64,000 nucleotides of DNA, taken from Escherichia phage VB-EcoM-WM. Both the position numbers and the translations under genes were made by a program. The notes below the pieces were generated by a model. That model made no database searches. It saw only the letters and a program-made list of their open reading frames with translations, and had not been told where the DNA came from. Below, piece after piece: positions 15,694 through 17,265 of the stretch; within the stretch, counting starts at the first letter, position 1, and each line of letters begins with the position of its first letter. The stretch lies in the sequence record PQ014731.1; one strand, 5' to 3'.

Positions 15694-16167
15694 TTAGTCA
15701 ACCTGAACCCAACCGCCTGCTACCTTTTTAAACATTCTTTGGTTATCACTGCCTCGAAATGGTTTCTTGGTTGGTAAATCTTTTACATACTTTCCATCAA
15801 TGACGATATCAGCCAGTTTAAGAACATCACTAGAGATATGCTCAAATGTGAACCCAGTATACACAAGAATAGTTTTCTTGTCACCAAACTTTTCCTTAAT
15901 TCTCCTCATAAGGTCTATAATACCTGGCTCATTATAAGTAGCCAAAGGCTCTCCACCAAGTAAAGAAATACCGCATACAGATTCATTGTCTAAATCCGAC
16001 AAAATTTTCTGCAAATCTTCTTCGGTGAACTCTCTTCCTTTATCTTTTGACCAAAATGCTTGATTAAAGCAACCAGGGCAAGCGTGTGGGCACCCAGATA
16101 CCCACAAAGCTGTCCTAATACCTGGCCCCTCGGTGTAAGATATCTCTGTGTATCCGACAATATTCAT
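15694..16167 (-). CDS. nrdG: anaerobic ribonucleotide reductase activating protein
   Basis: Radical-SAM cluster motif CPHACPGC (C-x3-C-x2-C); start trimmed to MNIVGY Met overlapping upstream stop. Confidence 0.7.
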   Translation of the reverse strand: MNIVGYTEISYTEGPGIRTALWVSGCPHACPGCFNQAFWSKDKGREFTEEDLQKILSDLDNESVCGISLLGGEPLATYNEPGIIDLMRRIKEKFGDKKTILVYTGFTFEHISSDVLKLADIVIDGKYVKDLPTKKPFRGSDNQRMFKKVAGGWVQVD

Positions 16168-16280
16168 ACGTACTCCGCATCGCATTTAGGACAATGCCAA
16201 ATAAAATCGTCCAGTGCCTTACACCAACGAAGATTGCAACTACAGCCGCACTTGCAAATTTTATAAATACCTGATGACAT
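16164..16280 (-). CDS. small Cys-rich zinc-ribbon-like protein (~38 aa)
   Basis: ORF MSSGIYKICKCGCSC...CPKCDAEYV with GGAGGTG RBS, ATGA overlap with nrdG start. Confidence 0.3.
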   Translation of the reverse strand: MSSGIYKICKCGCSCNLRWCKALDDFIWHCPKCDAEYV

Positions 16281-16332
16281 ACTGCACCTCCTTAGTTAAT
16301 AGCATGTTTAAGATATGTATATCTTTCTACAA

Positions 16333-17265
16333 TCATTTACCACAAATCCTCTTGTATACCTCTTCTACCGTGTCAAACACTTCAGGCCTGTAGTAGAAAA
16401 ACTCAGTGCTACCGTCAAATTTTACAGGAAAGTTTATTTTATACTTGCTCAAGGCCTTATGCACAGATTTTTCTAAATCTACCATGTTTTGAGTTGATCC
16501 GCTCCATGTTTTTACTACGTGAAGAGTGTGGACACCTGCGCCAGATTTACGAGCACTGTTAAGCACCTCATTTTTCCTCCTGTGCATTTTAACGCATACA
16601 CCGATTTTCATAAGTGTTGGCACTTCTAAGTCATCAACCATAATGTAGAGTTTACCGTACCCATGAGATAAGAATCCATTTTGTGCGCATTTACAGCAGC
16701 CACGACCACTTTTTAGGTTATTAGGTTTAGCAGACCACTTATACCCACAAATTTTGCACCTACATTGCACTTTTGTGTTATCATTGGCAATTTTCTCTAA
16801 TATTTCTATGTCTGGGTTGGCTTTGTGGATAATTGCAGCATGCTCCTTATGGGTTAACGCTTGACTTTGCCCACGTCTTAAGTCATAGCACTCTGGGCAA
16901 CCGTTTCTTTGGTATAAGTGGTTTTCAGGGTATTGTTCAAACACACCGTGTTCAGGGCAAACAATTTTTACAGGCGTTCTCATGTTCGCATATTTGACTA
17001 ATGAGTAATCGTACTTGTCCCCATGAACAGCCATAGCCTCTTTTATGAACTCTTCAGTGTTCTTTTTCGCTGACCCACCACACCTTGGACAACCATGATT
17101 CTTGAAAGCATGTGCCACAGGGGTTTGCCAGAACTCACCGTGCTCAGGACAAATTATACACACAGGTGTCTTGTTGTTTTTATACTCCACTTTGAAGTAA
17201 TCATATTTGTCACCATGTATAGTCTGAGCTTTTTCTATAAACTCTTCGGTTGTTAGTCTTCTCAT
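16333..17265 (-). CDS. putative homing-endonuclease-like protein with tandem zinc-ribbon repeats
   Basis: Three CPEHG...H...GCP.CG repeats; C-terminal region resembles a GIY-YIG/T5orf172-like nuclease domain; sits between nrdD and nrdG. Confidence 0.4.
   Translation of the reverse strand: MRRLTTEEFIEKAQTIHGDKYDYFKVEYKNNKTPVCIICPEHGEFWQTPVAHAFKNHGCPRCGGSAKKNTEEFIKEAMAVHGDKYDYSLVKYANMRTPVKIVCPEHGVFEQYPENHLYQRNGCPECYDLRRGQSQALTHKEHAAIIHKANPDIEILEKIANDNTKVQCRCKICGYKWSAKPNNLKSGRGCCKCAQNGFLSHGYGKLYIMVDDLEVPTLMKIGVCVKMHRRKNEVLNSARKSGAGVHTLHVVKTWSGSTQNMVDLEKSVHKALSKYKINFPVKFDGSTEFFYYRPEVFDTVEEVYKRICGK

Follow-up and report, generated by a model that had tools for sequence, protein, structure and literature searches.

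A probable T5orf172-type homing-endonuclease gene with tandem zinc modules between nrdD and nrdG of a Vequintavirus

The 64,000-nucleotide (nt) stretch of Escherichia phage VB-EcoM-WM analysed here (PQ014731.1; hereafter the window) carries an open reading frame (ORF) of 310 amino acids (aa) on the minus strand between nrdD and nrdG (16333-17265), where a first-pass annotation of the DNA had placed a homing-endonuclease-like gene. We assign a probability of roughly 0.78 to the reading that this ORF encodes a T5orf172-type homing endonuclease as a free-standing gene, and it is probably a selfish, mobile element. The source of the window is a Vequintavirus (rV5-like phage): about 300 phage records matched the region 15000-21000, and E. 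coli phages of the group match it over its full length at ~94-97% identity. Between 15.6 and 20.3 kb every gene is on the minus strand, and the order of transcription is nrdD exon 1, HNH ORF, nrdD exon 2, 310-aa ORF, 38-aa ORF, nrdG.

19107-20276, minus strand: nrdD exon 1
17376-18383, minus strand: nrdD exon 2
16333-17265, minus strand: 310-aa free-standing homing-endonuclease-like gene with three zinc modules and a T5orf172 domain (Pfam, PHROG, homologues, structural model)
16164-16280, minus strand: 38-aa mini-ORF with seven cysteines (PHROG 20137), outside the mobile cassette
15694-16167, minus strand: nrdG, class III ribonucleotide reductase activase (Fer4_12, 3.8e-43, and Radical_SAM; annotated as a 474-nt gene in relatives)

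The 310-aa protein consists of an N-terminal array of three tandem modules of 64-68 aa each, together 196 residues long, followed by a nuclease-like domain.

17074-17265, minus strand: zinc module 1, aa 1-64, DUF723 type, ligands C39/H42/C59/C62
16882-17073, minus strand: zinc module 2, aa 65-128, DUF723 type, ligands C103/H106/C123/C126
16678-16881, minus strand: zinc module 3, aa 129-196, CapR/DUF4379 type, cysteines C168/C170/C173/C190/C193
16336-16677, minus strand: T5orf172 nuclease domain, aa 197-310, with Y207, K220, R230, H269 and E288 invariant

The first-pass annotation had described three CPEHG repeats. Three homologous tandem modules are indeed there, but the C-P-E-H-G...H...G-C-P-x-C motif occurs in two of them only (aa 39-62 and 103-126); the third unit (aa 168-193) reads C-R-C-K-I-C-G...G-C-C-K-C (C-x-C-x2-C...C-x2-C) and belongs to the related but distinct CapR/DUF4379 subtype. 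Modules 1 and 2 are 58% identical (E 4e-27), and module 3 is 28% identical to each of them (E 5e-4 to 4e-3), so that by sequence comparison the array comprises three homologous modules of two subtypes, a likeness well beyond chance. In Pfam, DUF723 matched two stretches corresponding to modules 1 and 2 (50.2 bits, above its cut-off), and aa 150-195 matched both CapR (41 bits) and DUF4379 (39.3 bits, "probable treble clef zinc finger"), again above the cut-offs.

The C-terminal part matched Pfam PF10544 (T5orf172, of the GIY-YIG superfamily) over aa 207-307 with 33.9 bits against a cut-off of 20, covering model positions 4-100 of 101, and the protein matched PHROG 681, labelled "endonuclease" (7e-65). 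An AlphaFold2 model built from 22 homologues (mean predicted local distance difference test score, pLDDT, 87) showed a helix, a beta-hairpin and a knuckle in module 1, and the predicted fold of the C-terminal domain agrees with GIY-YIG nucleases. A nuclease-like C-terminal domain had been proposed from the start and a domain search suggested as a check on it; that search returned T5orf172 and the zinc-finger modules, with no assignment to a non-nuclease function. What changed is the class of the nuclease, since the earlier annotation had counted the gene among the HNH type: no HNH family was among the Pfam matches of the protein, and a match to PHROG 559 ("HNH endonuclease") was limited to the zinc modules (aa 53-197). 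Searching the PDB with a profile built on the nuclease domain gave no sequence relative.

Seven residues (Y207, K220, G222, R230, E265, H269 and E288) are invariant in the 22 homologues, and Y207, R230 and E288 are also invariant in a 10-sequence alignment of the nuclease domain. Judged by motif order and not by superposition, Y207 would be the tyrosine of GIY, KIG would replace YIG, and R230 and E288 would be the catalytic arginine and glutamate, equivalent to R27 and E75 of I-TevI and, for the glutamate, to E180 of Odn. The motif departs from the classical GIY...YIG, reading KLYIM...MKIGV with K220 in place of the second tyrosine, and the nuclease domain lies at the C-terminal end of the protein. 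Purifying selection acts on this domain: between diverged alleles, its ratio of nonsynonymous to synonymous substitution rates (dN/dS) is 0.11-0.29. This selection and the invariance of Y207, R230 and E288 speak against a catalytically inactive zinc-finger protein that regulates transcription of the mini-ORF and nrdG in the manner of the PLE repressor CapR or of I-TevI autorepression. CapR does descend from the same finger type (PMC10448857), and the gene lies between a terminator and the downstream operon, as a regulator might; however, the operon runs without the 310-aa gene in most relatives, and we consider a purely regulatory role very unlikely.

The gene is sporadic in its distribution. 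A query reaching from nrdG to nrdD exon 2 matched 119 records, and the 310-aa allele was present in only 18 of them, whose copies share 97.8-99.1% DNA identity. The first-pass annotation had called the position insertion-prone, had proposed comparing the nrdD-nrdG spacing with relatives lacking the gene, and had named ancestral core status as a finding that would refute it. In most of the remaining records, 61-63 nt separate the nrdD stop from the mini-ORF, among them Bas58, Bas50, FV3, nimi, FFH2, V18, 241Ecol014PP and EPFV3, and this element-free spacer holds the hairpin GCCACAAGGATGTGGC. Because only 18 of 119 records carry the gene and most others have this short spacer, comparison of the sequences indicates that it is not ancestral core. 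In GenBank records, the 310-aa gene is mostly labelled "hypothetical protein".

The same site holds at least four other alleles among GenBank records, which are 46-52% identical to the window gene. With the window order written as A-A-B, and A' denoting a CxxC-type module, these are:

JEP1: 311 aa, modules A'-B-A
phiWec189: about 318 aa from its likely start, modules A-A-A'
Bas51/WalterGehring: 330 aa, modules A-A'-B, annotated "putative homing endonuclease"
O157 typing phage 14 (ECTP14): 386 aa, modules A-A-A'-A

While the nuclease domain is conserved across the alleles, the zinc modules are rearranged. The order in JEP1 is a cyclic permutation of that in Bas51, and the A' module opens the array in JEP1, takes second place in Bas51 and is the third module of phiWec189 and typing phage 14, its copies being 62-75% identical to each other. 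The left junction of these other alleles lies immediately 3' of GTGGCA(C/T). Further homologues between nrdD and nrdG were found in metagenomic contigs of ~135-141 kb (P0009, 75% identical; P0091, 59%; P0078, 55%). The annotated start of the phiWec189 allele (L004 933-1934) falls within the spacer hairpin (MWHTW...), and the true start is likely the downstream MPRGKQLTTEEF, judging from the other alleles.

These copies also bear on the idea that the gene is a decaying, non-functional homing-gene remnant kept only through linkage. Degeneration after fixation is common for homing genes and the ribosome-binding site is weak, both as a remnant would have it; but the three window-type copies that were translated are full length and intact, without frameshifts, the 18 carrier copies are nearly identical, and the diverged alleles retain the frame and motifs of the window gene with dN/dS well below 1 (values above). 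A remnant is accordingly scarcely probable.

The junctions of the insertion were placed by BLAST and by anchored comparisons, and they enclose more than the nuclease gene.

17376-17485, minus strand: divergent 3' patch of nrdD, its last ~110 nt, which travels with the nuclease gene (identity to Bas58 by bin)
17337-17364, minus strand: terminator-like hairpin GAGAGCAAGGATGCTCTC and T-run directly 3' of the nrdD stop (consensus scan)
17304-17332, minus strand: sigma-70-like promoter TTGACT-17 nt-TAGTAT upstream of the nuclease gene (consensus scan, 9/12 matches)
16293-16332, minus strand: distal end of the inserted cassette (junction comparison)

Against the element-free Bas58, nrdD is identical at 40 of 40 positions per 40-nt bin for ~320 nt, and then falls to 34/40, 29/40 and 18/26 at its end, which places a sharp divergence boundary within nrdD at about 17485. 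The last 13 codons of nrdD encode ...HVGNVDCCPLSK in place of ...HYGSCGC. This foreign patch and the spacer are linked to the 310-aa allele in 18 of 18 carriers and occur in no other records, and the same nrdD tail is native to more distant lineages (L021-L023). The latter, though only 68-76% identical, have the same layout of hairpin and T-run, TTGACT-17 nt-(-10-like hexamer) and gene; in L021 and L023 the hairpin and T-run structure is kept with a different stem sequence. The promoter and terminator are putative functional elements. At the distal end, homology to element-free genomes restarts 12-15 nt ahead of the mini-ORF ATG.

The cassette of the window is 98.6-99.5% identical to that of navn or A51.2, whereas the flanks are less similar (nrdG 89.5% and distal nrdD 93.4% identical to navn; distal nrdD 90.7% identical to A51.2). 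Two indels close by also vary among the carriers, one being the ORF in the nrdD intron and the other a pair of extra small ORFs ahead of nrdG. Because the cassette exceeds its flanks in identity, the foreign nrdD tail is linked to it and nearby indels differ among carriers, the pattern is consistent with a mobile cassette that was introduced into diverged backgrounds together with donor flank. No intron accounts for the gene, which lies between the nrdD stop and the mini-ORF with its own promoter-like site; the sole group I signal in 15000-21000 falls within nrdD (18404-18638).

We propose that the three treble-clef zinc modules recognise DNA and that the C-terminal GIY-YIG-fold domain would make the cut. 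In a mixed infection, an element-free allele would be cut near the 3' end of nrdD or in the spacer between nrdD and the mini-ORF, and recombinational repair off an element-bearing genome would copy in the whole cassette, that is, the variant nrdD tail, the terminator, the promoter and the nuclease gene. Such an insertion would be harmless, because the cassette carries its own terminator and promoter: nrdD would stay intact, and the mini-ORF and nrdG downstream could still be transcribed.

A protein of this kind might alternatively be a domesticated nuclease that benefits the phage by cutting its competitors, whether other phages (marker exclusion) or, in the manner of ICP1 Odn, phage satellites, without spreading itself. 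T5orf172 nucleases have been co-opted in this way elsewhere (PMC8263062, PMC10448857), and the intact ORF in 3 of 3 translated copies, the high identity of the 18 copies and dN/dS below 1 would suit such a role. However, only 18 of 119 relatives carry the gene, it occupies a classical homing site by a conserved gene with a co-converted flank, and its DNA-binding modules are the usual fingers of homing genes and not a captured RepA_N-type domain. We judge domestication unlikely, and, as with the regulatory and remnant explanations, less likely than homing; homing and a domesticated role are not mutually exclusive.

Several points weigh against a homing endonuclease. The second tyrosine of GIY-YIG is a lysine (MKIG), which is typical of T5orf172 and unlike the classical enzymes. 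The gene has a weak Shine-Dalgarno sequence, GGAAGGG, far from its start (14 nt upstream). The 18 carriers could result partly from shared descent and ordinary recombination instead of nuclease-driven homing. Finally, no clean immunity polymorphism was found: two single-nucleotide polymorphisms in the last nrdD codons near the junction (TAT/AGT), present in 4 of 4 JEP1-type carriers, were rejected as an immunity marker because 2 of 8 element-free genomes share them. These two genomes are FFH2 (L017) and 241Ecol014PP (L019), both with the AGT change and FFH2 with the TAT change too; they may once have had the nuclease gene and lost it, or their empty site may resist cleavage.

A speculative extension of the homing model, which we hold to be doubtful, is that each module of ~65 aa reads its own DNA sub-site, so that the array would amount to a recognition code whose units can be re-ordered, much as in zinc-finger or transcription activator-like effector arrays. 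If so, the code could be deciphered from the allelic series and its flanks, and it could account for the replacement of one homing gene by another at a single site.

The 38-aa cysteine-rich mini-ORF had been presented as a coupled companion of the selfish element. Its description was accurate, with AGGAGGT 5 nt upstream of the ATG and a TGA that overlaps the nrdG ATG (16167-16165) as ATGA, and we take it to be translationally coupled to nrdG. However, it occurs in 121 phage records irrespective of the nuclease gene, including nine element-free genomes examined directly, and is for this reason not part of the cassette. With a mean dN/dS of 0.077, seven invariant cysteines and a full-length match to PHROG 20137 (labelled "ribonucleotide reductase"; positions 1-38 of 38, 1.2e-29), the mini-ORF is by comparative evidence a real, genus-level conserved gene. 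More distant contigs hold homologues of 53-54 aa in the same nrdD-mini-nrdG position with a 4-nt overlap, and this order is preserved in L010 and L014.

Three findings speak against tying the mini-ORF strictly to nrdG. It is separated from nrdG by two other small ORFs in Bas50, Bas51 and A51.2; it is absent from L023; and the SP6-like podovirus vB_EcoP_ACG-C91 has an unannotated copy (L009 2480-2608), ATGA-coupled to DNA ligase, whose 83% DNA identity is confined to the ORF. Neither nrdD nor nrdG was found within the ~5 kb examined around that copy. Because the DNA homology stops at the limits of the ORF, the alignment indicates that the mini-ORF moved by itself into an unrelated podovirus.

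No Pfam family matched the mini-ORF, a protein search with five extra in-frame residues returned close relatives only, and a search of 1.84 billion representatives gave no relatives beyond these phages; two long cysteine-rich repeat proteins from the latter were taken as compositional matches. Its AlphaFold2 model, with three short strands, was of low confidence (pLDDT 62) and was not used for a fold search. Our best guess for the product is a small metal-binding protein resembling a zinc ribbon. It might serve ribonucleotide reduction specifically, although we do not favour this, and a rubredoxin-like redox partner was set aside, since only knuckle motifs stood behind it and the ACG-C91 copy beside DNA ligase weakens it. 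An ORF of 78-81 aa lies between the mini-ORF and nrdG in Bas51 (L005 755-1136), Bas50 (L007 765-1137) and A51.2 (L008 765-1001), with an extra 34-aa ORF annotated in Bas50 and Bas51; this is a second indel polymorphism of the locus. In the metagenomic protein P0129, the N-terminal part of the mini-ORF is fused to the C-terminal part of the 78-aa ORF.

Insertions beside ribonucleotide reductase genes have a parallel in phage T4, where MobE, an HNH enzyme, lies between nrdA and nrdB. The I-TevI and Seg proteins of T4 differ from the window protein in having the nuclease N-terminal, both motif tyrosines, and NUMOD or helix-turn-helix binding; the window protein has the reversed order, a lysine for the second tyrosine, and zinc fingers. 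The PLE repressor CapR shares the homology domain matched by module 3 (41 bits), but lacks a nuclease domain and represses transcription. Barth, Dunham and Seed (2023) described T5orf172 homing genes with repeated CapR, DUF723 and DUF4379 fingers that are shuffled by recombination, found a ribonucleotide reductase gene in 33% of T5orf172 homing-gene neighbourhoods, and placed nuclease genes at boundaries of sequence exchange (PMC10448857). Their genes (e.g., ICP1 gp165 and gp174) and the window gene share the nuclease domain, the tandem finger families and the order of N-terminal fingers and C-terminal nuclease; all are free-standing, adjoin a ribonucleotide reductase gene, sit at an exchange boundary, and have finger modules rearranged between alleles. 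The window gene is unlike those examples in belonging to a Vequintavirus of E. coli, and neither rV5, Vequintavirus nor nrdD is named in that paper. Since the architecture, the shuffling and the enrichment near ribonucleotide reductase genes had been described there, the gene is of an already known type. What the present locus adds is a series of alleles at one site, the cyclic permutation of their modules and an nrdD tail that was imported. The origin-directed nuclease Odn (gp88) of ICP1 shares the T5orf172 catalytic domain and, by motif order, the conserved arginine and glutamate, and is the only close relative with in vitro cleavage, its E180A mutant being inactive (PMC8263062). Odn differs in its captured RepA_N DNA-binding domain and in its target, a satellite origin, and is not a homing gene.

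The window contains further mobile and notable features, other nucleases having been sought among ORFs of at least 90 aa, a scan that may miss shorter ones.

18504-19055, minus strand: HNH_3/NUMOD-like ORF, 183 aa, in the nrdD intervening sequence
18346-19115, minus strand: nrdD intervening sequence, ~770 nt, limits estimated by alignment to the uninterrupted nrdD of phiWec189
33140-33604, minus strand: HNH endonuclease ORF (PHROG 5200, 2.4e-72)
34360-35124, minus strand: HNH endonuclease ORF (PHROG 99, 2.2e-37)
29842-30447: endonuclease VII-like gene
46925-47149, plus strand: ORF-less group I intron in the large terminase gene (RF00028, 92.7 bits)
43931-44651, plus strand: cluster of five tRNA genes (Rfam RF00005, 29.9-77.1 bits)

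The first-pass annotation had claimed at least four other HNH-type genes for the window; three were found, plus the endonuclease VII-like gene, and a fourth HNH gene was not found among the ORFs scanned. The heavy selfish-element load proposed along with them nevertheless stands, given the two group I introns that the window contains as well. The Rfam match in nrdD (18404-18638) scored 32.9 bits, below the gathering score of 50, and the insert varies in relatives, some having none and others different inserts. The intron in the large terminase gene divides it into 46192-46941 and 47268-48005; terminase introns are already known for rV5, and the rV5 genome paper mentions only these (PMC3606486). 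No paralogue of the 310-aa gene was found elsewhere in the window. The HNH ORFs at 33140-33604 and 34360-35124 flank an endolysin-like gene (33884-34363), and two paralogous ORFs of unknown function on the minus strand (4508-4903 and 6706-7116) both match PHROG 7379 (4.2e-66 and 3.7e-73). Eighteen GenBank records named "Campylobacter phage" (MG0656xx) are Vequintavirus genomes ~90-96% identical to the window and to E. coli phages; they list Campylobacter as host (C. jejuni for 16), a label that looks doubtful.

For annotation, the 310-aa gene can be labelled a T5orf172-type homing-endonuclease gene, and the split-looking nrdD-nrdG region is explained by mobile insertions, not by assembly problems. 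The 38-aa protein with seven cysteines combines strong conservation with independent transfer into an unrelated podovirus. Because cultured carriers and non-carriers exist in the BASEL collection and elsewhere, the locus is convenient for measuring the target specificity of T5orf172 nucleases. This single Vequintavirus site offers a natural example of homing-gene turnover, zinc-module shuffling and import of the 3' end of a neighbouring gene, and the example is well populated, with 18 carriers, at least four other alleles in GenBank, and ~100 records without the 310-aa allele that are mostly empty at the site.

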